This document shows, in pieces, positions 4,103 through 60,148 of a stretch of DNA of 64,000 nt. Source of the stretch: Candidatus Woesearchaeota archaeon (lineage in GTDB: Archaea > Nanobdellota > Nanobdellia > SCGC-AAA011-G17 > ARS1403). Every line of letters begins with the position of its first letter. Position 1 is the first letter of the stretch. The DNA lies in contig JACPIN010000020.1 in NCBI GenBank assembly GCA_016188065.1, positions 764 to 64,763 on the forward strand, read 5' to 3'. The translations under genes were made by a program, and so were the position numbers. Under the pieces are notes generated by a model. It did not search any database and was not told where the DNA came from. It saw only the letters and a program-made list of their open reading frames with translations.

Positions 4103-4882
4103 AATAAGGCTTGAACAGAAAACTCCATGGCTTTATACCGGCTTTAACTTCTCTATACATAATTATTGCTGTCAATATAGGCAAAATTGCACCATAGATA
4201 ATCAGGATTATATCCAGTGAGCTGAAGATTGCTGCTATCAAGAAGAGATATCTTGAATTAGCACCTTGTATTACTGTAAAAATTAATCTGAATAAATTTC
4301 TTAAAAATGATTTTTTATATTGTGTATGTTTTTCATTGGGTATTGGAACGGATTTATCTATTGATATGTGCGGTGATTTTCCTTGTGCACATTCTACAAG
4401 TTTAGAAAATATTACCTCATGTTTTAGGTACTGGATTATTCCATTATAGAAACTGAAGAATATAGCAGAGATTCCAAAAATTAAAACCAGTATATCAAAG
4501 TGATTTTGCATTACTCCAATTGTGACTCCGGCAAATACCAGTGGCATAATGATTACTTCTGATAAAGAGTCCAAAAACAAACCATCTAGTGAAGTAGCTT
4601 TTTTATATCTTGCCAATTCTCCATCTACTTGATCAATAACGATCATCAACTCGAATGGGACTATTGCAAGGATTGAAAATAGATAATTATTCATTGCAAA
4701 GAAAAAAGCTACTAATACATTAAAAAATAATAAAGAGAGCGTTACTTGATTGGGGGTTATTTGTGTGTTTATAAGTAATCGCGTTATATATATTGAAGAA
4801 CTTTTCCCCTTAAAGTACCAAAATCGTGCATTTCTGAAGGTTTCTGACAGATCTCTCTTAGCTCTTTTATTGTTGGAGACAT
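4095..4882 (-). CDS. CDP-alcohol phosphatidyltransferase family protein, interrupted by a frameshift near 4803-4810
   Basis: DG-x2-AR-x8-G-x3-D-x3-E motif (DGELARYKKATSLDGLFLDSLSE). The upstream open frame encodes the family-typical ITPNQVTL N-terminus without an ATG. An ATG at 4882 in the adjacent frame (MSPTIKEL...LRGK) joins after a 1-nt shift in a GGGGAAAA run. Confidence 0.6.
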
Positions 4883-4933
4883 GGAATAAACTTAGCCGTT
4901 AGTTATTTAAGATTTGCTAATGAAGAATAAAAG

Positions 4934-5884
4934 ATGGTAGATAGTATTATCTGCAATAGCATAAAAAACCTTGAGTTGAAAGAAGGGAGGGGAACTGCGA
5001 TTGCTCACCATGGCGAGATCCTGCAAGGAATGTTTGAAGACGCAGGAAAATTATTCAGGGGATCAGTTACTTTACCATGCCACATCTTTGGATCACAAGC
5101 TAGTTTTTTCCCTAAAAAAAATTCTTCTAAAATTGTTGTTGATCCTGAATGGAAAATAAAATCTAAAAAAGCTGCGGAATTAACCTTAAAATCTTTGGGT
5201 GTTGAGGACATAGGAGGTAGATTAATGATTAAAAGCAATACCCCTTTGAGACTAGGTCTTGGCTCTTCCACTAGTGATGTAAATGCTTCTATTTTGTCTG
5301 TTGCAAATTCCCTTGGTGTTGTGTTATCTCCTGTTACAATTGCAAGCATCGCTGTCAAGGCTGAAATAGCAACTGATGCTATAATATTCGGTGAGAGAGC
5401 TGTTCTCTTCGGACATAGAGATGGAAAAGTATTTGAAGACCTTGGTGGCAATTTCCCTCCAATGGAGGTTCTTGGCTTTAATTCCGATCCAGATGGAGAA
5501 GGAGTTGACACTTTAGCTTTCCCTCCTGCAGAATATTCCTGGCAGGAAATTGAAATGCTTAGACCTTTGGTAGGTTTGATGAGAAGGGCCATTTATGAAC
5601 AGAACCCTAAGCTTATCGGAAGAGTTTCAATTGCAAGTACAGAGATTAATCAAAGATTTTTGCCTACCAAAAATTTTGATAGTATAAAAAATATTGTTCG
5701 AAAAGTTAATGCTGCCGGCTTGCAAGCCTCGCATAGTGGCATAGTTGTAGGGATTATATTTGATTCTAATGACGTTGATAAAGAGCAAAAAATTCATAGG
5801 AGCCTTTCTTTATTAAAAGACATTGGCTATGATAATGTGTGGAGATTCAGAACAGATAAATTACATCTGGAGGCAGGCTTATGA
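4934..5884 (+). CDS. GHMP-family kinase
   Basis: PLRLGLGSSTSDVNAS matches the GHMP ATP-binding motif PxGSGLGSSAA. The length of 316 aa fits the family. Confidence 0.65.
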   Translation: MVDSIICNSIKNLELKEGRGTAIAHHGEILQGMFEDAGKLFRGSVTLPCHIFGSQASFFPKKNSSKIVVDPEWKIKSKKAAELTLKSLGVEDIGGRLMIKSNTPLRLGLGSSTSDVNASILSVANSLGVVLSPVTIASIAVKAEIATDAIIFGERAVLFGHRDGKVFEDLGGNFPPMEVLGFNSDPDGEGVDTLAFPPAEYSWQEIEMLRPLVGLMRRAIYEQNPKLIGRVSIASTEINQRFLPTKNFDSIKNIVRKVNAAGLQASHSGIVVGIIFDSNDVDKEQKIHRSLSLLKDIGYDNVWRFRTDKLHLEAGL

Positions 5885-6921
5885 AAAACAGATTAGCTTA
5901 CGATAATATTATTGATTTTGTAGAGCTGCCAAAAATAATTAAATTGGATGATAACCTGTATGGCAGTGCCTTCTTCCTGATGAAATTAATGCCTGCGAGG
6001 TTTATATTAGAGAGAGCTGAAAGGGAAGGCATTTTGAAACCTGGATCTTTGGTTGCTGAAACTACATCCGGAACATTCGGCCTGGCTTTAGCTATGCTAT
6101 GTTCTCTAAAAAGTTACAAATTTATTATGGTAACTGATCCTGTTGTCGATGATGCTTTAAAAAGAAGAATCGAAGATTTAGGCGCTGTTGTTGAGATTGT
6201 TCAAAAACCTGCCGATATCGGTGGTTATCAGCGATCCAGGCTTGATAAATTAGTGGAGATTTTAAAAAAAAATTCTGGAAGCTTTTGCCCTAGCCAATAT
6301 GAAAACACAAACAATCCTGCAGGATATTCAAAGTTTGCTGAAATATTAACTGAATCAGTAGGACATATAGATTGTTTAGTCGGCACTGTCGGTTCTGGTG
6401 GATCTGTCTGCGGTACCAGTAAATATTTAAGACAATTGTTCCCAGATCTGCATGTTGTCGGAGTTGATACCTTGGGAAGCGTAATTTTTGGACAACCTGA
6501 TCAGAAAAGATTGTTGCGAGGTCTTGGAAATAGTTTATGGCCTGATAATGTCGATCATACTGTTTTTAATGAGGTTCATTGGGTAAGCGCTGCTGAGGCT
6601 TTCTTGGCTACTAGAATGCTGCATAGAAAACATGCTTTATTTATGGGAGGAACAAGTGGCGCTGCATATATGGTTGCAAAATGGTGGGCAGAAAAAAATC
6701 CTTGTAAAATCGTTGTATGTATCTTTCCAGATGAAGGATATAGGTATCAAGACACAATATACAATGATAGATGGCTTGAAGAAAATAATGTAAAACTTGA
6801 CAAACTTCCTAATAACCCCATTGAAGTAAAAAATCCGATAGATGCGAAAGCTCAATGGTCTTGTATTGGCTGGAATAGAAGAGATTATGAGAATGTCGTT
6901 GGCAAACATAAAGGAACATGA
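5881..6921 (+). CDS. PLP-dependent fold-type II enzyme, cysteine synthase / SbnA-like
   Basis: AETTSGTFGLALAMLCSLKSYKFIMVTDP and GTVGSGGSVCGT glycine-rich PLP-phosphate loop. Its ATGA start overlaps the upstream kinase stop. Confidence 0.65.
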   Translation: MKNRLAYDNIIDFVELPKIIKLDDNLYGSAFFLMKLMPARFILERAEREGILKPGSLVAETTSGTFGLALAMLCSLKSYKFIMVTDPVVDDALKRRIEDLGAVVEIVQKPADIGGYQRSRLDKLVEILKKNSGSFCPSQYENTNNPAGYSKFAEILTESVGHIDCLVGTVGSGGSVCGTSKYLRQLFPDLHVVGVDTLGSVIFGQPDQKRLLRGLGNSLWPDNVDHTVFNEVHWVSAAEAFLATRMLHRKHALFMGGTSGAAYMVAKWWAEKNPCKIVVCIFPDEGYRYQDTIYNDRWLEENNVKLDKLPNNPIEVKNPIDAKAQWSCIGWNRRDYENVVGKHKGT

Positions 6922-47107: not shown

Positions 47108-47856
47108 TATCTCTTGATTTCCGTCCATTTCCAGGGTTTTTCATTTATTAAATGTTTGCACTTTATCGATAAATCTGCAAATATTTCAAAGCCTTCATAG
47201 AAAACGTCCCTGCAGAACCAATTATCATCAAAATACGGGAAAAATGGATCATAGCGAAACTCTATCTTTTCTAGGACCGTTCTATGAATTAACAGGCAGC
47301 CAGAGCCGCACGAGATTACTTTAACTATCTTGTCCTGCTCCGTCTCCTTTGGATGCATTAATCTTATGCTCGCTCCGTCTATCACCTTATCTGAAAGTGC
47401 ATTTGAAACCCATAGTGTCGGAATCAGGTATCTTGCCTGTTGTGATGAGTATTGATTGTTATAAACAAAGTAAATCCCTGTTTGTATTTTTTTATTATTC
47501 TCGATCATTCTCTCTATTATATCCTTAGGTGGGATAATGTCCTGGTCTAAGTTTAAGAGATAATCATAACCTTCTTCCAGTGCCTTTCTCCTTAAAATAT
47601 TCCTGGAAACAATCATTCTTTCTCTAGCGTTTTCTAAGTATCCTATTCTTGTATAAGGCAGACCATTTTCCTTTAATTTTCCTGAAAAGCTTTCCGATTT
47701 CGAGTTATCTACAAAGAACAAATCATGATTCTTAAATGTTAAAGACTTTCTTGAGTTTGCGAATTCATCAAAGCAATAATCATAAAGGTCAGATACCGGG
47801 CTTCCGACTAATATTTTTGGGTTTGGACTCATAGCTCCAATTCGCTCCAGTTCCAC
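47107..47856 (-). CDS. small GT-A fold glycosyltransferase, paralog 2
   Basis: Same conserved core (FVDNS, SRNILRRKALEEGYDYLLNLDQDIIPP, CGSGCLLIHR). Its stop abuts the tRNA-Val gene. Confidence 0.55.
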   Translation of the reverse strand: MELERIGAMSPNPKILVGSPVSDLYDYCFDEFANSRKSLTFKNHDLFFVDNSKSESFSGKLKENGLPYTRIGYLENARERMIVSRNILRRKALEEGYDYLLNLDQDIIPPKDIIERMIENNKKIQTGIYFVYNNQYSSQQARYLIPTLWVSNALSDKVIDGASIRLMHPKETEQDKIVKVISCGSGCLLIHRTVLEKIEFRYDPFFPYFDDNWFCRDVFYEGFEIFADLSIKCKHLINEKPWKWTEIKR

Positions 47857-48509
47857 GGCCTTTTGTTAAGCAGGTGTCTGCATTTTAATGACAAGTCAGC
47901 GTAAATCTTAAAGCCTTGCCCTTCAGCATCTTTACAGAAGAACCAATCATCAAATCCAGGCTTTTTATCTATCCTGAACCTTACTTTTTCTAATACCCTT
48001 CTTGAAATTAGTATTGCTCCTAAGCCTGCATAGTTAACTTTTATCAGATTATTGTTCTTATCAGCATAATTAAACGGAAGATAACCGTACTTCCCATTGC
48101 TTTCTTTAATTGCGAGCATCGGAGTCAAAGAAGTGCTATTTGGCATGAAATAGAGCGCGGAGATTATATCCTCTTTAGGTTTAAGGAGTCTCTCTATTAT
48201 ATTTGCTTGCGGCAAGACGTCCTGCTCTAAACTGAAAAGATAATCGTAACTGCCATCTAGGACTTTCTGCCTGAGGATGTTTCTTGATGCGACTATCCTA
48301 TCTCTAGCTGATTCAAAGTGAGGACCTTTCATTACTGGGATTTTTAGTGATTTAATTTTTTCAAGATAGTTATCATCTTGAGAGTTATCAACTAAAAGCA
48401 GATCCTGATTTTTGTATGTTAATTTCTTGACTGCTTCTGCATACTCCTTCAGGCAATACTCTTTGTGAGAACTAGTAGGACATCCTACCAGAATTTTTGG
48501 TAATTTCAT
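47829..48509 (-). CDS. small GT-A fold glycosyltransferase, paralog 3
   Basis: VGCPTSSHKEY, LLVDNSQDD, SRNILRQKVLDGSYDYLFSLEQDVLP. Overlaps paralog 2 by 28 nt. Confidence 0.55.
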   Translation of the reverse strand: MKLPKILVGCPTSSHKEYCLKEYAEAVKKLTYKNQDLLLVDNSQDDNYLEKIKSLKIPVMKGPHFESARDRIVASRNILRQKVLDGSYDYLFSLEQDVLPQANIIERLLKPKEDIISALYFMPNSTSLTPMLAIKESNGKYGYLPFNYADKNNNLIKVNYAGLGAILISRRVLEKVRFRIDKKPGFDDWFFCKDAEGQGFKIYADLSLKCRHLLNKRPWNWSELEL

Positions 48510-49978: not shown

Positions 49979-50031
49979 CTATAAATAATAAAATCAAGAA
50001 ATCAATTTTTTAAACATATCTAAAATCTAAT

Positions 50032-50117
50032 AGCCATCGGAGGGATTTGAACCCCCAACCTATTGCTTACAAGGCAACTGAGCTTTTTTAATTGCTCTAC
50101 CATTGAGCTACGATGGC
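50032..50117 (-). tRNA. tRNA-Thr (anticodon UGU) with a ~14-nt non-canonical intron
   Basis: Acceptor GCCATCG/CGATGGC, D-arm GCTC-AATGGTA-GAGC, anticodon arm GTTGC-CTTGTAA-GCAAT, T-arm GGGGG-TTCAAAT-CCCTC. The extra ATTAAAAAAGCTCA sits between the D-arm and the anticodon stem. Confidence 0.6.
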
Positions 50118-50151
50118 TTTGAGAAGATTTAGAAAAAGTTTATTTATTAAA

Positions 50152-50715
50152 TTATTGCTTTTCAAAAATTCTTATCTGGCAGCCTGTAACTGGGTAGATT
50201 TTTTTTAGATGCTCGCGCAACTGCACCTGAAGCTTTGCTTCTAATAATGCATGGATGTTTTCCTGATAGCTCTGCTTTTTGACTGCTGCCCTCAAAAATT
50301 CTTCTGAGTTTTTTCTGATTTTTGACAGAACACCCTTTGTTGTTTTTGATTTTGTAATTAGGACCGGCTTTGCAACCACTGCAATATTGTCTTTTGTCTC
50401 CAGCTTGAAGCTTTGGTCTACCTTGCTTTTGCCAGGGTGCATCATTCGTTTAATAGAACTTGGCATTATCTGATAACCCTTTATTTCTGTCAATGCTTTA
50501 TTATCCTTAATCTCAGTTATCCTGAAGGTTATCTTGACATTCTGCTTTTTAGGATCGTGCAGTAAATCCATTCCAGTCATAGTAACTGTCTTTCCTACTA
50601 GCTTAGAAGGGTCCGAGGTTAGTGTTTCTCCAATCTCCGGGATCCTGAAGCCAGGTGTTGGCAGTATAGAATACCAGTGCTTTTTCTTTACCTTTATTTC
50701 CTGCTTTGCCATCAT
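50152..50715 (-). CDS. rps3ae: 30S ribosomal protein S3Ae (eS1)
   Basis: KKKHWYSILPTPGF N-terminal signature and a length typical of archaeal S3Ae. Confidence 0.8.
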   Translation of the reverse strand: MMAKQEIKVKKKHWYSILPTPGFRIPEIGETLTSDPSKLVGKTVTMTGMDLLHDPKKQNVKITFRITEIKDNKALTEIKGYQIMPSSIKRMMHPGKSKVDQSFKLETKDNIAVVAKPVLITKSKTTKGVLSKIRKNSEEFLRAAVKKQSYQENIHALLEAKLQVQLREHLKKIYPVTGCQIRIFEKQ

Positions 50716-50862
50716 TAGATTTCCATAAAGTTCGTTTATAAAATTATTGTTTTCAGAGTGTTAAGTTTCCGAGTGGTTGATTAGCTGTTATGTATCGGGT
50801 GACGGAGAGGATGTCGCATTATCAGGAGATAATTTTAATGTCTTATGGAAGGGCTTAAAGAT

Positions 50863-51924
50863 TCATACTTCCCCCCTTTTCTCTAAATAAAATTGTAAGT
50901 ATTCCAAAAATTCTCTTGAATTTGCAAAATAATTTAGATATGCTTTTTTTAGTTCTTCAACAGAATCTGCTCCAACAAGAACTACATCCTTATCCTTACT
51001 ATCGCTTTGTAATTTTTCTGCTTCTAAATAATGTTCTGTTGCGATCGTTTCTCCTTCTTCGGGATAACCTCTGATACTTAGATTTGGTTTTGTCTCATCG
51101 GATACATCCAATTCTAATAAAAAGAATTTCCATTCTTTAAGTTTTGGTTCTATAACTTTCAATGCTTGCGTCCAACTTCTCATTTTTGAAAATATTTTCA
51201 ATTTGTCCACTTTTTCTTTTATAGCACTGAATAGATTAGCATTATTTGTGGGGGTGTTTTCTACTTCTTTTTGTTTTTCAATTTTTGCAAAGGCAGAACT
51301 TAATAATCTAAAAAATTCTTTCCATTCTTCATCGCCCTCATTTGATTTAATTGCTTGTTTTGTAAACAAATCCACTATCTCTATTGCTGTTGCCCACGCA
51401 TGCTGAATTTTGCTTCTGACTTGTATCTCAATAAGCAATCCATCGTAAGTGTTTATTTTATCGCTTTTGTATCTGTAAATTAAATGCATACTTCTATATC
51501 CATCTTTTTTAGGATTTTTTATATAGTCTTTTTCTCTAATTTTTTTATGCTTAAGCCCTCTACTTTTTCTATAAATTCCCACTAATTCATTAACTTTATC
51601 CACATCAGAAAGAACAGCTCTACAACCCGCAATATCTTGCATTTGAGATAAACTCATGGTTTTTGTCTGGTCTCTTTTTAATTTTTTAATAATTGAAGGG
51701 GCTCTTTTCAACCTTTGTACAACTAAGTAGTTTTCATCTACCTTTTTTGATACTTGCCTTAATCTTGCTTGAAAAGTATTCATGGGGTAACCATGAGATG
51801 AACGCCAATTGTTCAAAATTGACATTGCTTCTTCTTTTTCTTCTTCTGTAGAATCTTCACTAACAAGAATATGTCCTGCTCTGTCTATTTTTGCTTTTCC
51901 GTATTTTGGCTTAGTCCATGCCAT
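50863..51924 (-). CDS. RelA/SpoT-domain nucleotidyltransferase (small alarmone synthetase-like)
   Basis: DIAGCRAV, GYRSMHLIYR and EIQVRSKIQHAWA match the RelA/SpoT synthetase motifs (GYRSLH...EIQIRT..Q..WA). An extra C-terminal domain of about 150 aa follows. Confidence 0.7.
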   Translation of the reverse strand: MAWTKPKYGKAKIDRAGHILVSEDSTEEEKEEAMSILNNWRSSHGYPMNTFQARLRQVSKKVDENYLVVQRLKRAPSIIKKLKRDQTKTMSLSQMQDIAGCRAVLSDVDKVNELVGIYRKSRGLKHKKIREKDYIKNPKKDGYRSMHLIYRYKSDKINTYDGLLIEIQVRSKIQHAWATAIEIVDLFTKQAIKSNEGDEEWKEFFRLLSSAFAKIEKQKEVENTPTNNANLFSAIKEKVDKLKIFSKMRSWTQALKVIEPKLKEWKFFLLELDVSDETKPNLSIRGYPEEGETIATEHYLEAEKLQSDSKDKDVVLVGADSVEELKKAYLNYFANSREFLEYLQFYLEKRGEV

Positions 51925-51947
51925 GCGATTATTAATTACTTAATTAC

Positions 51948-52045
51948 GCATGCTTTATATATCTTTGCATGCTTAAAAATTAACGCATGCAAAGGTTTAA
52001 ATATAGGGTTACATCATTATTGCATGCGTATTTTTATTTGCATGC
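51948..52045. promoter_or_regulatory. array of five GCATGC palindromes at ~18-19-bp phasing in a divergent intergenic region
   Basis: GCATGC occurs at 51948, 51967, 51985, 52022 and 52040. The last lies within the 10-bp palindrome TTGCATGCAA. The array sits between the RelA/SpoT gene and ORF 52052. Confidence 0.5.
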
Positions 52046-52051
52046 AATAAA

Positions 52052-52285
52052 ATGGAAAACACACAACAATATATAAAAAGTTTCTCCTCATGGAGAGAAG
52101 AAAGAGCAAAGGCAATTTTAGAGAAAGGTAACCCTCAAATTTTAGATGAATTTACCTATTTTGTGCCTTCTCAATCATCAGATAAAAAATACAAAGTAAC
52201 CCACATTGACGCTTATAGCTGTAATGTGCAGACTTTCAAAACAGATGTAAAGGCAAAAGGTTATACTGCAAACACCAGCAGATAA
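52052..52285 (+). CDS. small hypothetical protein (77 aa) divergent from the RelA/SpoT gene
   Basis: ORF only, no recognisable domain. Its start lies 7 nt after the last GCATGC site. Confidence 0.3.
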   Translation: MENTQQYIKSFSSWREERAKAILEKGNPQILDEFTYFVPSQSSDKKYKVTHIDAYSCNVQTFKTDVKAKGYTANTSR

Positions 52286-52400
52286 ATGTGGTATTGGAGT
52301 TCAAGGTAACACATGGGAAACAATACTATTAAACTCAATTAAATACAAAAACACTTACGCCTTAACAGCAGAGGAGAAAATGCCAATAACACCCTTATTC

Positions 52401-53768
52401 CTAACACTCTCTTGTTTTCACTCTCACTGCTCTTGCAAGCCCTATGAACTCAGATTCTTTTTCCCGATGGATTAAAGCGCCAGCTGCGTTCCTATGGCCG
52501 CCTGCCTGAAACCCTAGCTTGGAGGTTATTGAATCCAGGATTTCCTTTAAATTGAGATTATTATTTTTGTGGCCTGAGCAGCGCATGGATATTTTTGTGC
52601 TTTCCTCTGCGGTATGCGCCATGGAGATTATTATTGTATTTTCTGGATAGAGATTAGACTTGGCTATCATTGAAGTTAATGTCCCTATGATCGTATCCCT
52701 TACATGATTTTCAGCGTTAATAATAACAAGATTTCCCACTTCAATTATTTTTTCTTTATTATTGTAAAACCAGTTCAATGACGAGATTAATTCCTTTTTG
52801 TAGTCGTTCAGTGTGCTGATTGCTGCTTCCTTCAGATTTTTATCCCCTATGCATGCAGCGATTCCTAAAGAATATCTATTCAACCTGCCGCAGGAATTCA
52901 GCAAAGTTGCAAACTCTCTCAGATCTTTTAGAGGAGACTCTTCCTGCTCTGTTTTCAATAAGTAAATTGGGCCGAGCACATCTTCAGGATTTTCCTCTGA
53001 CCCTAACCTCTGCAGGATTATTGATGTAACTAGATTCTTCATCTCTTCCTTGCTTAGATGAATTAATTTTTTTTCAGGATTGATGCCCAATTCATTGAGA
53101 AATTCTTTTGATGCCTGCTCGCTTCCGGTTATTCCAGGAATATAAGGATCTGTTGAATACTGCAGCAGCTTGCATAAATGCTTTGTCTGCGCTCCGAACA
53201 TCCTCAAACCTGTTGTTATCTCCAGATATGGCTTTGCATCTTCCAGAATTATTTTGTTTATTGACGTAAATCCCCCATTATCCTGGTTGTCACCTATTGC
53301 GCCTACTAGAGCTAATGTTGATAGATCTTTATTTTTCTCGTCTAAAGATTTTGCAAATAGATATGCAAGGCCTGCTCCAGAAACATCCTTGTTCCCGTCT
53401 AAGCCAAAAAGCATCGGGTTTAAATGAATGAAATTATTTTCAAAATGCTCTGGCTGATGATGATCAAGAATAATTATTTTTTTTGCATTGATTGCTTCTT
53501 TTATTTCTGCCAGATTTCCTGAGCCCAAATCGACGAATAAAAAAGTTTCATAAGATTCTGACTTGAATTGCGATAGAGTGTTGATAGAAATCTGCTTGAC
53601 AATTGTTAAAGCAAACTTCTTGTTCAGCCTCTTCAATGCTTTTGTAATTATCGCAGCTGAAGAAATTCCGTCTGCATCTAAATGTGAAATTACTCTTACT
53701 GTGCCGTTGCCGTTCCTTAAGTTTTCAGCTTCCTGCTTTACTTTTTCAAGAAATGATTGCATCATCAT
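52401..53768 (-). CDS. DHH/DHHA1 phosphoesterase (archaeal RecJ/GAN-like or nanoRNase)
   Basis: ISHLDADGISS (DxD), IILDHHQPE (DHH) and GFQAGGHRNAAG (the GGGH motif of DHHA1). Confidence 0.65.
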   Translation of the reverse strand: MMMQSFLEKVKQEAENLRNGNGTVRVISHLDADGISSAAIITKALKRLNKKFALTIVKQISINTLSQFKSESYETFLFVDLGSGNLAEIKEAINAKKIIILDHHQPEHFENNFIHLNPMLFGLDGNKDVSGAGLAYLFAKSLDEKNKDLSTLALVGAIGDNQDNGGFTSINKIILEDAKPYLEITTGLRMFGAQTKHLCKLLQYSTDPYIPGITGSEQASKEFLNELGINPEKKLIHLSKEEMKNLVTSIILQRLGSEENPEDVLGPIYLLKTEQEESPLKDLREFATLLNSCGRLNRYSLGIAACIGDKNLKEAAISTLNDYKKELISSLNWFYNNKEKIIEVGNLVIINAENHVRDTIIGTLTSMIAKSNLYPENTIIISMAHTAEESTKISMRCSGHKNNNLNLKEILDSITSKLGFQAGGHRNAAGALIHREKESEFIGLARAVRVKTREC

Positions 53769-54220
53769 TCAATTAAAAGGGATGCATGCTCTCTTGAGAA
53801 TCTCCAGTCTTGAGGGAGCTTGTCATTTGCCTTGTAATATTTGGCCAGCCTCTTTATCTTTGATTCTGTCAGCTGCAAACCCCTGACTGACGGCTGGTCT
53901 TTCCTGTTTGCCTGCAGATGCTTCGTTATGTTTATATATTTTCTAATTAAATTCAGCATATCTTCAGGGAGCTTTGGAAGCAGCTTTTCCTCTGCCAGAA
54001 TCTGGGTTATTGATTTCCCAGTTAATTGGCTAACGCTAGGTATTCCGTATGAGTCTCTTAAGATTATGCCTATCTGAGAATGAGATTTCTGAGCCTTTGC
54101 CAGCTTAGATATTAATTGTGTTAGCTCATTCTTGTCATACCTCTGCCAGGTAATTTTCTTTGCGCTTAGTGGCTTTTTACTGCCAGACTTTCCTTTCTTA
54201 CCTGAGTGCATTCTTGCCAT
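53765..54220 (-). CDS. rps15: 30S ribosomal protein S15 (uS15, S13e-type)
   Basis: MARMHSGKKGKSGSKKP is the archaeal S15 N-terminus. The ORF-track start at 54280 is an upstream extension, so Met at 54220 is preferred. Confidence 0.8.
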   Translation of the reverse strand: MARMHSGKKGKSGSKKPLSAKKITWQRYDKNELTQLISKLAKAQKSHSQIGIILRDSYGIPSVSQLTGKSITQILAEEKLLPKLPEDMLNLIRKYINITKHLQANRKDQPSVRGLQLTESKIKRLAKYYKANDKLPQDWRFSREHASLLIE

Positions 54221-54305
54221 TTTAATATTGAGTGAACAGCTTGAAACTAGAAAAAATTTCCAGCATAGGCAAGCTTTCACTGACCTATCTTGAAAAGAAT
54301 TGCAA

Positions 54306-54624: not shown

Positions 54625-55368
54625 TTAAAATTTTGAATAATAATCAGCCCATGTCCATCCTTTCTGCTTTATCAGGTGCTTGCAAATCATTGATGTATCT
54701 GCGTAAATTGGAATCTTCAACTCTGTTAGATCCTTGCAGAAAAACGCATCATCGAAAACAAAGTAGTTTTTTTCTTTTTTATCATACTCTTTTGAATAAT
54801 GAAAACTAATTTTTTTTAAAACCGAATTATGTATGAATAAACATCCTGAGCCGCATGAAGCTATCTGCATTAATTCTCCTGTTAATTCTCCCTCTTCCAA
54901 CTGCTGGATTACCTCTTTTTTATTTGTGAATTTCCAAATTGTTGGAAATATTCTTCCAAATCTTATTCCTTCTCTTGAACCCAATTTCTTCGGTGTAAAA
55001 TTTTTATAATTGAAATATATTCCAGTGATTACTCTTTTTTTATGCTGTAAAAACCGCCCTATAATCTCTTTTGGTGGAATAACATCCTGATCAATATTGA
55101 GGAAAAAATCATAATTATCTTCGAGAACTTTCTGCCTGAGAATATTTCTTGAATGCACCATCCTATCCCTTGGCTCTTCAAAGTATTTTCCCCTAATTAC
55201 ATTTACTTTCATTGATTTTAATTTTTTATAGAAGCTATCTGTTTTTGAATTGTCAATAAGCAAGACATCATAATTTCCATAGGTTAGACTTTTAACGGCT
55301 TCTACATATTCTTTAATGCAGTAATCATACATTTCATTTACAGGGCTGCCGACGAGGATTTTTTTCAT
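54625..55368 (-). CDS. small GT-A fold glycosyltransferase, paralog 4
   Basis: VGSPVNEMYDY, LLIDNSKTD, SRNILRQKVLEDNYDFFLNIDQDVIPP. Confidence 0.55.
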   Translation of the reverse strand: MKKILVGSPVNEMYDYCIKEYVEAVKSLTYGNYDVLLIDNSKTDSFYKKLKSMKVNVIRGKYFEEPRDRMVHSRNILRQKVLEDNYDFFLNIDQDVIPPKEIIGRFLQHKKRVITGIYFNYKNFTPKKLGSREGIRFGRIFPTIWKFTNKKEVIQQLEEGELTGELMQIASCGSGCLFIHNSVLKKISFHYSKEYDKKEKNYFVFDDAFFCKDLTELKIPIYADTSMICKHLIKQKGWTWADYYSKF

Positions 55369-60002: not shown

Positions 60003-60021
60003 TTTTTTATTCCTCAGTATA

Positions 60022-60111
60022 TAGCCCCACCAGGATTCGAACCTGGGTCAATGGCTTGCTTCACACCCTTATTCCAAAGGCCACTATCTTTGACCGCTAG
60101 ACCATGGGGCT
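60022..60111 (-). tRNA. tRNA-Gln (anticodon UUG) with a 17-nt intron at the canonical 37/38 position
   Basis: Acceptor AGCCCCA/TGGGGCT, anticodon stem GTGGC/GCCAT, loop CTTTGG+A, T-arm CCAGG-TTCGAAT-CCTGG. The 90-nt length implies an intron. Confidence 0.65.
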
Positions 60112-60148
60112 ATAAAAGAATTATTAGAAAGCGGTTTTAAAAAGATTG

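Follow-up and report, generated by a model that had tools for sequence, protein, structure and literature searches.

What kind of enzyme does a RelA/SpoT-domain gene specify in a DPANN archaeon, and what controls its expression? The question is raised by positions 50863–52285 of a 64,000-nucleotide stretch of a Candidatus Woesearchaeota genome (assembly GCA_016188065.1, contig JACPIN010000020.1; hereafter the 64-kb window, or simply the window), where a gene for a 353-residue protein and a divergent open reading frame (ORF) of 77 codons are separated by a spacer with five GCATGC palindromes. An initial annotation of this DNA had proposed a small alarmone synthetase, possibly a toxic one (toxSAS), with the short ORF as candidate regulator or antitoxin. 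Our analysis leads, with good confidence, to another answer: the gene at 50863–51924 is an archaeal CapRel, a representative of the antiviral one-protein toxin–antitoxin family, borne on a transposon and equipped with a conserved operator. Judged from its sequence, it is a newly found member of a known family, and its host is a Candidatus Woesearchaeota (DPANN) archaeon.

Identity of the 353-residue protein

The gene and its key segments are as follows.

50863..51924, − strand: CapRel-type fused toxin–antitoxin gene, 353 aa, with an N-terminal toxSYNTH (RelA/SpoT) domain and a C-terminal anchor/pseudo-zinc-finger antitoxin-sensor in a single polypeptide
51388..51717, − strand: toxSYNTH catalytic core, aa 70–179 (PF04607), holding R71, D97, R102, the G-loop Y143 and E166
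50929..50940, − strand: YLNY (YXXY autoinhibition motif), aa 329–332, aligned with KKAYPNYF (Y352/Y355) of CapRelSJ46

The ORF is intact, opens with ATG and matches Pfam RelA_SpoT (PF04607) over aa 70–179 (E 1.2e-20). The synthetase motifs first noticed in it, GYRSxH, EIQ(V/I)R(S/T) and QxxWA, are present as GYRSMH (aa 142–147), EIQVRS (aa 166–171) and QHAWA (aa 174–178), preceded by QDIAGCR (aa 96–102). In a phmmer search of the PDB the best match was CapRelSJ46 (7ZTB, 9ERV; E 1.7e-42, 30% identity), which aligned from query aa 6 to 347 with positions 13–370 of its 373-aa chain, whereas ordinary small alarmone synthetases reached 1e-15 and spanned aa ~66–181 only. The C-terminal extension, initially described as unrelated, thus aligns with the antitoxin/sensor half of CapRelSJ46. 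The PADLOC profile PDC-S33 likewise covers the protein from aa 1 to 347 (E 6.6e-121; profile positions 1–342 of 349) and places it in a candidate single-gene family; PDC-S33 is itself a bioinformatic candidate, and a literature search found no mention of it.

We built an AlphaFold2 model on an alignment of 38 homologues, which also served to check residue invariance. The model is of high confidence (mean pLDDT 88.9, pTM 0.87), and Foldseek returned 7ZTB as its best PDB match, over 359 columns (full length) with a TM score of 0.68–0.70 and a root-mean-square deviation of about 10 Å, a value that would be expected if the mobile C-terminal domain sits differently in model and crystal. In CapRelSJ46, the functional residues are the G-loop Y155, the ATP-coordinating R79 and R116, and Y352/Y355 of the YXXY motif with their scaffold (A351, V338, L339, A341) (PMC9712102). 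The phmmer alignment pairs these with R71 (within VVQRLKR, equivalent to R79), R102 (within GCRAV, R116), Y143 (within GYRSMH, Y155) and Y329/Y332 (Y352/Y355). The catalytic R71, D97, R102, Y143 and E166, which include the Mg-binding D97 and E166, are invariant among the 38 homologues, so that the catalytic residues of a toxSAS-type RelA/SpoT enzyme, as the initial annotation had it, are intact on alignment. At the other end of the chain, LKKAYLNYF aligns with LKKAYPNYF of CapRelSJ46; Y329, N331, Y332 and F333 are invariant as well, and the scaffold positions of the motif are filled by V315, L316, G318 and A328. In sequence and in structure alike, the protein shows every feature by which the CapRel family is recognised.

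The protein has 2543 homologues at E <= 1e-5 and 534 relatives in GTDB species representatives, with DPANN archaea as the source of almost all of the ~60 closest loci; the earlier remark that RelA/SpoT homologues are rare in archaea is therefore inapplicable to the CapRel family. In the literature we found CapRel in DPANN in a census-style survey only. Neighbouring ORFs differ at almost every one of about 80 CapRel-homologue loci and no adjacent small antitoxin gene is conserved. Since toxin and antitoxin/sensor lie within one CapRel chain, a separate antitoxin is unnecessary, and the pairing with a small separate antitoxin that had been anticipated gives way to a fused protein with a C-terminal YXXY motif. 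Defence genes adjoin some of the homologues, namely a methyltransferase and a GmrSD-HNH gene at locus L008, and AbiJ and DpnI at L222. At the latter (L222:3063-6349), a Micrarchaeota CapRel homologue of 60% identity that has no array lies between AbiJ_NTD4 and DpnI-type restriction genes in a small defence island.

The resemblance to CapRelSJ46/CapRelEbc (7ZTB, 9ERV; Zhang et al. 2022, PMC9712102) extends to a single collinear chain of about 350–370 aa with equivalent key residues and to carriage on a mobile element. The two differ in host and vehicle, an enterobacterial prophage host on one side and a DPANN archaeon with an IS6-like cargo transposon on the other, and in the promoter, which in the window has a conserved GC-core array of a kind not described for CapRelSJ46.

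A conserved operator array upstream of CapRel

The region between the divergent genes contains the following elements.

51925..52051, no strand: divergent promoter/operator spacer, 127 bp, with five GCATGC at 51948, 51967, 51985, 52022 and 52040
51954..51962, − strand: putative CapRel TATA box, ATATATAAA on the − strand, with AAAG (like a B recognition element, BRE) before it, 29 nt 5' of the ATG
51996..52003, + strand: putative TATA box TTTAAATA of the divergent transposase gene, assigned from conservation

The five sites follow one another at start-to-start distances of 19, 18, 37 and 18 bp, as first recorded. The hexamer occurs 18 times in the whole window against about 10 expected, and five copies per 127 bp have a Poisson P of about 1e-10 when the rate outside the spacer is taken as background. 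The central part reads TATA(rev)-CCTTT-GCATGC-N12-GCATGC-AAAG-TATA(fwd); an extra GCATGC follows just downstream of the CapRel TATA box, and two more separate the reverse TATA box from the start of the transposase. A helical-face periodicity had been suggested for these spacings; however, 18–19 bp correspond to ~1.75 helical turns and 37 bp to ~3.5 turns, so neighbouring sites face different sides of the helix. A gathering-threshold Rfam scan of the window returned three tRNAs and no RNA family within the spacer, and no second paired GCATGC array was found elsewhere in the 64-kb window.

We compared the spacer among nine distinct loci, here called clade A, which comprise the window together with L005–L011 and L047 and whose CapRel proteins are 67–86% identical to that of the window. 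All eight other loci have 3–6 GCATGC at about −41, −60, −98 and −116; number, 12–13-bp spacers and position relative to the TATA box are kept, and the array thus proved to be conserved at orthologous loci, a check that the initial annotation had itself set. Across the nine loci, identity amounts to 49% in the spacer between the proximal hexamers and to 72% in the BRE/TATA segment, whereas the hexamers themselves are 100% conserved. Invariant hexamers within so divergent a spacer constitute a phylogenetic footprint. The central pair stands 12–13 bp apart, each member abutting a BRE-like AAAG and an outward TATA box (...TATTTAAACCTTT-GCATGC-N12-GCATGC-AAAG-ATATATAAA...), and the layout further includes two sites on the transposase side of the reverse TATA box. 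An AAAG plus TTTAWAWA element lies 21–29 nt 5' of the ATG in 9/9 loci, and GGTTTAAATA, at the putative TATA box of the transposase gene, keeps its place in the clade-A loci, even in L009, where the transposase gene has been lost. The extra GCATGC directly 3' of the CapRel TATA box is shared by the window and L007. In L007, L009 and L010, CapRel is solitary, the transposase is gone and the chromosomal contexts are three different ones, and still the array is retained. Outside clade A, L220 (62% identity) has two GCATGC.

More distant homologues from DPANN archaea and the candidate phyla radiation (CPR) have a related GCGCAAAA array. Those 44–55% identical to the window protein (clade B) lack GCATGC and instead carry (A)CC-GCGC-AAAA(C) 2–5 times, at the corresponding places in the promoter: one copy abuts AAAG-TTTAAATA, often one lies between the TATA box and the ATG, and the rest are upstream. 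Lineage variants within clade B include GCGCAATTTGACAT and, with every copy altered together, GCCCAAAAC. L023 and L068 have ACCGCCCAAAAC in place of ACCGCGCAAAAC in each of their four operator copies (170 bp upstream of the match), a change that is concerted within the locus. Whole operator-plus-TATA units have also been duplicated in tandem, a 57-bp unit three times in L009 (825–998) and a ~70-bp unit twice in L026 (170 bp upstream of the match), which indicates a control region prone to expansion. Sister transposases with other cargo carry neither a GCATGC nor a GCGC-type array. From this pattern of conservation we consider the GCATGC repeats to be a genuine conserved control region of the CapRel gene, and the putative operator to belong to that gene and not to the transposase; its consensus would be about WAC-GCATGC-AAAG, in five copies that flank or overlap two BRE/TATA elements.

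Scans of sequence collections with GCATGCN{12,13}GCATGCN{31,32}GCATGC gave 13 viral loci and at least 120 metagenome loci; the matches listed were unrelated throughout, being tandem iterons of 19 bp and sequences that are for the most part GC-rich, and neither CapRel nor the transposase accompanied any of them; the pattern is too unspecific for such scans. Many unrelated viral and metagenome contigs (L093, L168, L182, L194, L200) have long, iteron-like tandem arrays of 19-bp GCATGC-containing units, which share their period with the site spacing in the window, are otherwise unrelated to it and do not adjoin CapRel or the transposase.

In having multiple short repeats over the core promoter of a toxic mobile gene, at positions typical of repression (over BRE/TATA and start site), the array resembles the operators of type II toxin–antitoxin systems and of restriction–modification C-proteins. 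It differs from them in that the locus encodes neither a DNA-binding antitoxin nor a C-protein.

CapRel is the cargo of a decayed IS6-like transposon

CapRel, the spacer and the remnant of the divergent gene form a 1.66-kb decayed IS6-like cargo transposon (50755–52411). From left to right, its parts and the gene that it struck are these.

50747..50754, no strand: left copy of the 8-bp target-site duplication TTGTTTTC, identical to the octamer at 52412–52419
50755..50792, no strand: transposon end, CapRel side; terminal inverted repeat AGAGTGTTAAG and two degenerate GTGTTA-like subterminal repeats, GAGTGGTTGAT and TAGCTGTTATG
52049..52382, + strand: remnant of a SWIM/Zn-ribbon/DDE (IS6-like) transposase gene; the 77-aa ORF (52052–52285) is its frameshifted 5' part
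52386..52411, no strand: transposon end, transposase side; two GTGTTA-type repeats (reverse complement GAGAGTGTTAGG, AGGGTGTTATT), overlapping the stop and last codons of the DHH gene
52412..52419, no strand: second, right-hand copy of the TTGTTTTC target duplication, immediately beyond the inverted repeats
52401..53768, − strand: flanking host gene for an archaeal RecJ/Cdc45 (GAN)-like DHH protein, its 3' end struck by the insertion; outside the system

The inverted repeats, AGAGTGTTAAG (50755–50765) and CCTAACACTCT (52400–52410), differ by one mismatch. The terminus in the window is homologous to GAGAGTGTTAG of L008 and to the GCTGTTAA repeats of L005, and TTCTAACACTCTCTT at the transposase-side end recurs in L008 immediately after the transposase stop codon. 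The L008 element has GAGAGTGTTAG after the transposase stop, an inverted copy, TTAACACTCTC, 4.6 kb away and ACATGTGAA flanking both ends; it holds the transposase, CapRel, an EcoRI-like methylase and a GmrSD_N-HNH gene. In L005, 34-nt inverted repeats enclose transposase and CapRel, with CCTTCATGAAGG as the flanking duplication. The three elements have different flanking genes each. The two or three GTGTTA/GCTGTTAA-like repeats at the ends are likely the sites on which the transposase acts.

The 77-aa ORF is the dead stump of a transposase and not a regulator or antitoxin. It does begin right after the last site, as had been pointed out (6 nt past the final GCATGC, at 52052..52285 on the + strand), and Pfam has no match to it. 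Both L008 and L011 have an intact divergent gene, of 409–414 aa, with a SWIM finger, a Zn-ribbon (DUF7838) and an IS6-type DDE_Tnp_IS240 domain (PF13610, E 4.2e-10 for the intact L008 protein and 2.3e-11 for that of L005). A tblastn search with the 414-aa L008 transposase aligned 52049–52258 with aa 4–73 (70% identity) and, in another frame, 52272–52382 with aa 374–410 (62%). DNA alignment locates a 1-nt deletion near 52223, within the CxC of the SWIM finger, which shifts the frame, and an internal loss of ~860 bp (about aa 88–373) after ...TACTGCAAACAC, with its junction near 52270–52276. Three-frame translation extends the ORF in frame 3 as CADFQNRCKGKRLYCKH..., which completes the SWIM CxCx(n)CxH finger. 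Four assemblies made independently from the same population agree in both lesions, and this agreement, like the ~860-bp deletion, rules out that the short ORF arose from a sequencing error of 1 nt. Since only transposase aa 4–73 and 374–410 survive, the copy in the window is non-autonomous, and CapRel is the one gene in it that is still intact.

The element shares with the IS6 family (IS26/IS240 type) the DDE_Tnp_IS240 domain, short terminal inverted repeats and an 8-bp target duplication, which is an IS6 trait. It departs from that family in the N-terminal SWIM finger and Zn-ribbon (DUF7838) of its transposases, in the divergent defence-type passengers between transposase gene and one inverted repeat, and in the two or three subterminal GTGTTA-like repeats.

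Transposases of this architecture (SWIM, DUF7838 Zn-ribbon and DDE_Tnp_IS240, about 410 aa) have 444 homologues at E <= 1e-10, and source names, where present, are all archaeal (Nanoarchaeota, Pacearchaeota, 'archaeon'). At the sites viewed (L008:3632-8223, and L227, L229, L231 and L234 around 4500–6250), the transposase is divergent from varied defence-type cargo: CapRel with an EcoRI-like methylase and GmrSD-HNH; a 52-aa ORF with ParB_N; a type I/IIG methylase; an N6_N4 methylase with a SNF2/DEAD helicase; or an ApaLI-type restriction–modification system. The spacers between transposase and cargo often hold tiny ORFs of 44–67 aa and cargo-specific palindromes. These SWIM/IS6-like elements look like an undescribed family of defence-cargo transposons.

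Insertion into a ribosomal-protein and replication cluster

The surroundings of the gene had been correctly read as ribosomal protein, tRNA and DHH genes: S3Ae (50152–50715) and a tRNA (50031–50118) lie on one side of CapRel, and on the other the DHH gene, which itself overlaps the S15 gene (53765–54280). The suggestion that the DHH phosphoesterase might act on the product of the synthetase, by contrast, did not hold. Given the inverted repeats and the 8-bp target duplication, the adjacency of DHH and CapRel is accidental: a transposon landed there, next to a RecJ/Cdc45-like protein with DHH (PF01368), DHH_CID (PF21763, 2.1e-16) and DHHA1 (PF02272) domains and a faint match to Arc_Cdc45 (PF27767). 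The DHH reading frame now stops inside the right inverted repeat (...KTREC*, 52401–52419). With the element removed, DHH would end ...VKTIIL* and S3Ae would start about 20 bp on, the predicted empty site being ...GTGAAAACAATAATTTTATAA. As read from these junctions, the insertion gave a replication protein a new C-terminal end and interrupted an S15–DHH–S3Ae cluster.

Weighing alternative explanations

Two other accounts of the enzyme have to be set against a fused CapRel. That it is a housekeeping small alarmone synthetase, making (p)ppGpp for archaeal stress signalling, might be read from the Pfam RelA_SpoT match, from a match to the YjbM-like NCBIfam model and from the ppGpp synthetase label that source databases give the protein. 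The NCBIfam match (NF053588) scores only 72.9 bits, however, far under its cut-off of 320. In the PDB search, the E value of CapRel surpasses that of RelQ/RelP-type enzymes by 27 orders of magnitude, with the antitoxin half included in the alignment, and compared with the single-domain RelQ/RelP and YjbM/YwaC (about 200–230 aa) the protein has an extra CapRel-type C-terminal half of 170 aa. There is no hydrolase partner, and the gene is mobile: it is transposon cargo, its neighbours differ from genome to genome, and it occurs in defence islands with GmrSD, DpnI and AbiJ. We regard a housekeeping role as very unlikely. The other account is a two-gene toxSAS, in which the 77-aa ORF serves as antitoxin, as GCATGC repressor or as both, and the DHH phosphoesterase degrades the nucleotide product. 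The position of that ORF beside the last site would suit it, as would the homologous divergent gene in L005, L008 and L011, and bicistronic toxSAS systems are known (bioRxiv 10.1101/575399). The toxSYNTH toxin is indeed common to FaRel2:ATfaRel2, PhRel:ATphRel and Mycobacterium CapRel:ATcapRel, and such bicistronic systems are neutralised by an element of pseudo-zinc-finger-domain type whose YXXY blocks the ATP donor site (PMC11782079); in the window, by contrast, this antitoxin is fused in cis, as the YXXY-bearing antitoxin domain of CapRel itself, and there is no conserved partner gene. The small adjacent ORF is a relic of the 5' part of a 410-aa transposase gene, which has a frameshift within the SWIM CxC and has lost aa 88–373, and it is missing from L007, L009, L010 and all clade-B loci, where the arrays are kept. 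The DHH protein, for its part, has the CMG-interacting DHH_CID and sits in the transposon-interrupted S15–DHH–S3Ae cluster. A two-gene system is scarcely credible here. A possible analogue, the PANGU NAP-toxSAS (bioRxiv 10.64898/2026.04.06.716658), was considered and dismissed, as there is no partner gene and the C-terminal domain is CapRel-like.

For the array, the question is whether it functions at all and, if so, what binds it. Tandem duplications like those of L009 and L026, chance in an AT-rich spacer or restriction-type palindromes could produce a cluster without function; GCATGC and GCGC are typical restriction sites, and unrelated 19-bp GCATGC iterons are common in metagenomes. Such an origin is nevertheless improbable in view of the P of about 1e-10, of hexamers that stay invariant in nine loci while the spacers are 49% identical, and of site positions that are fixed relative to the TATA boxes; restriction sites are further disfavoured by the asymmetry of the conserved flanks (AAC...AAA) and by the GCCC core of L023 and L068, which is non-palindromic. 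SWIM and Zn-ribbon modules are able to bind nucleic acids, and the N-terminus of the transposase might therefore bind GCATGC, autoregulating its own gene and co-regulating the cargo, in trans where the local copy is dead. Two of the sites do occupy the stretch from the reverse TATA box to the start codon of the transposase, and in L005, L008 and L011 the array stands exactly between both genes. Even so, the transposase is an unlikely binder and this scheme distinctly improbable: at six loci where 74–84%-identical transposases accompany other cargo, unrelated palindromes take the place of GCATGC upstream of the transposase gene, the array persists without the transposase in L007, L009 and L010, clade-B arrays are never next to a transposase, and the ends of the transposon have GTGTTA/GCTGTTAA repeats of their own as the likely transposase sites. 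The third candidate is CapRel. Wherever an array occurs, in neighbourhoods that are otherwise unrelated, this is the one gene invariably found with it, which makes autoregulation, of the kind known from type II antitoxins, an attractive hypothesis: in the DPANN/CPR branch the protein, or a form of it, would bind the GC-core repeats, GCATGCAAAG in this clade and GCGCAAAAC in the sister clade, over BRE/TATA and start site. The operator changes with the protein clade (GCATGCAAAG, GCGCAAAAC, and GCCCAAAAC in L023 and L068), all copies at a locus together. A GCGC array also occurs in L034, whose neighbours, as judged from sequence, resemble TsaD and trigger factor and thus indicate a bacterial context, which makes a shared host factor unlikely. 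The 260 bp upstream of clade-B CapRel contain GCGCAA at 50 times its density in the rest of those loci, and the flanking DNA has only one other cluster (L016). Yet no DNA-binding domain can be recognised in the protein, which also lacks any segment beyond those of CapRelSJ46, DNA binding by CapRel is not described in PMC9712102 or PMC11782079, array-less relatives exist, and simple co-inheritance of gene and promoter would give the same co-variation with clade. We therefore hold autoregulation to be possible but doubtful, both as direct binding of the repeats by the CapRel-like protein and as the rule for the whole branch. A host regulon built on the motif was also considered and rejected, given that no other paired GCATGC occurs in the 64-kb window and that a single extra GCGCAA cluster, that of L016, was found in the clade-B flanks.

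Several points weigh against our own reading of the locus as a transposon-borne CapRel with a conserved operator. The array is absent from L218 (65% identity), from L222 (60%) and from 80 phage- or prophage-borne relatives (35–45%), so that the operator must be dispensable for the function of the protein, and no candidate DNA-binding protein is linked to the GCATGC sites. The BRE/TATA elements are assigned by conservation alone, and TATA-to-ATG distances elsewhere in the AT-rich window are too noisy to confirm leaderless transcription. We found no empty-site allele: 5/5 contigs with an identical S3Ae protein also have the insertion. Finally, a Salmonella-phage protein of 30% identity is the source from which both the substrate (tRNA or nucleotide) and the trigger are extrapolated.

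A probable course of events

With a transposon-borne CapRel as the preferred reading, we envision the following sequence. On landing, the element hit the final codons of the RecJ/Cdc45-like DHH gene, on its border with S3Ae, and duplicated the 8-bp TTGTTTTC. The 127-bp spacer would act as a bidirectional archaeal promoter region, and a sequence-specific protein most likely binds the operator and represses or otherwise tunes transcription; the location of the sites over BRE/TATA and the presumed start suggests repression. In the resting state of the protein, the C-terminal pseudo-zinc-finger domain would fold back so that the YXXY motif (YLNY) plugs the ATP site. By analogy with CapRelSJ46, binding of a viral protein to the C-terminal domain would lift this block, and infection would be aborted. 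The target, by homology, would probably be tRNA, with pyrophosphorylation of the 3' CCA instead of alarmone synthesis.

To our knowledge, CapRel, although among the best understood 'one-protein' antiviral sensors, has been studied in enterobacteria and their phages only. Complete CapRel proteins, with catalytic and autoinhibitory residues intact, are common in DPANN archaea and CPR-type bacteria, and they travel as cargo of previously uncharacterised SWIM/IS6-like transposons that also carry restriction–modification and other defence genes. This offers direct evidence of how ultra-small symbionts with tiny genomes gain and exchange immunity genes, even into a ribosomal-protein/replication cluster. 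Should the array serve as a switch for autoregulation or in response to infection, a system whose control is believed to be entirely post-translational would gain a level of transcriptional regulation. Autoregulation, if true, would make this the first DNA-binding CapRel, a fused toxin–antitoxin with type II-like promoter control, and a self-contained circuit that works in archaeal and bacterial hosts while moving on transposons. For annotation, the locus advises caution: neither the small neighbouring ORF nor the DHH gene should be taken as a functional partner.

Other observations

The database labels of two homologous loci look wrong. L049, labelled Patescibacteria, has a seemingly archaeal-type L18e by CapRel, as judged by eye, and L034, labelled Gammaproteobacteria, is low in GC and, with its TsaD/trigger-factor-like neighbours (by sequence), probably belongs to a CPR bacterium. 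Within the window, the tRNA genes at 50031–50118 and 60021–60112 are 88–92 nt long and probably contain introns; the anticodon 'aaa' (Phe) given by ARAGORN for the first is doubtful. Two paralogous ORFs, 47829–48509 (226 aa) and 54625–55368 (247 aa), with similar N-termini (MK..ILVG.P...........EY.EAVK.LTY.N.D.LL.DNS), stand on either side of the ribosomal/DHH cluster, and a neighbouring ORF of 468 aa combines a methyltransferase domain with one of glycosyltransferase family 2; the three may represent a duplicated glycosylation module.

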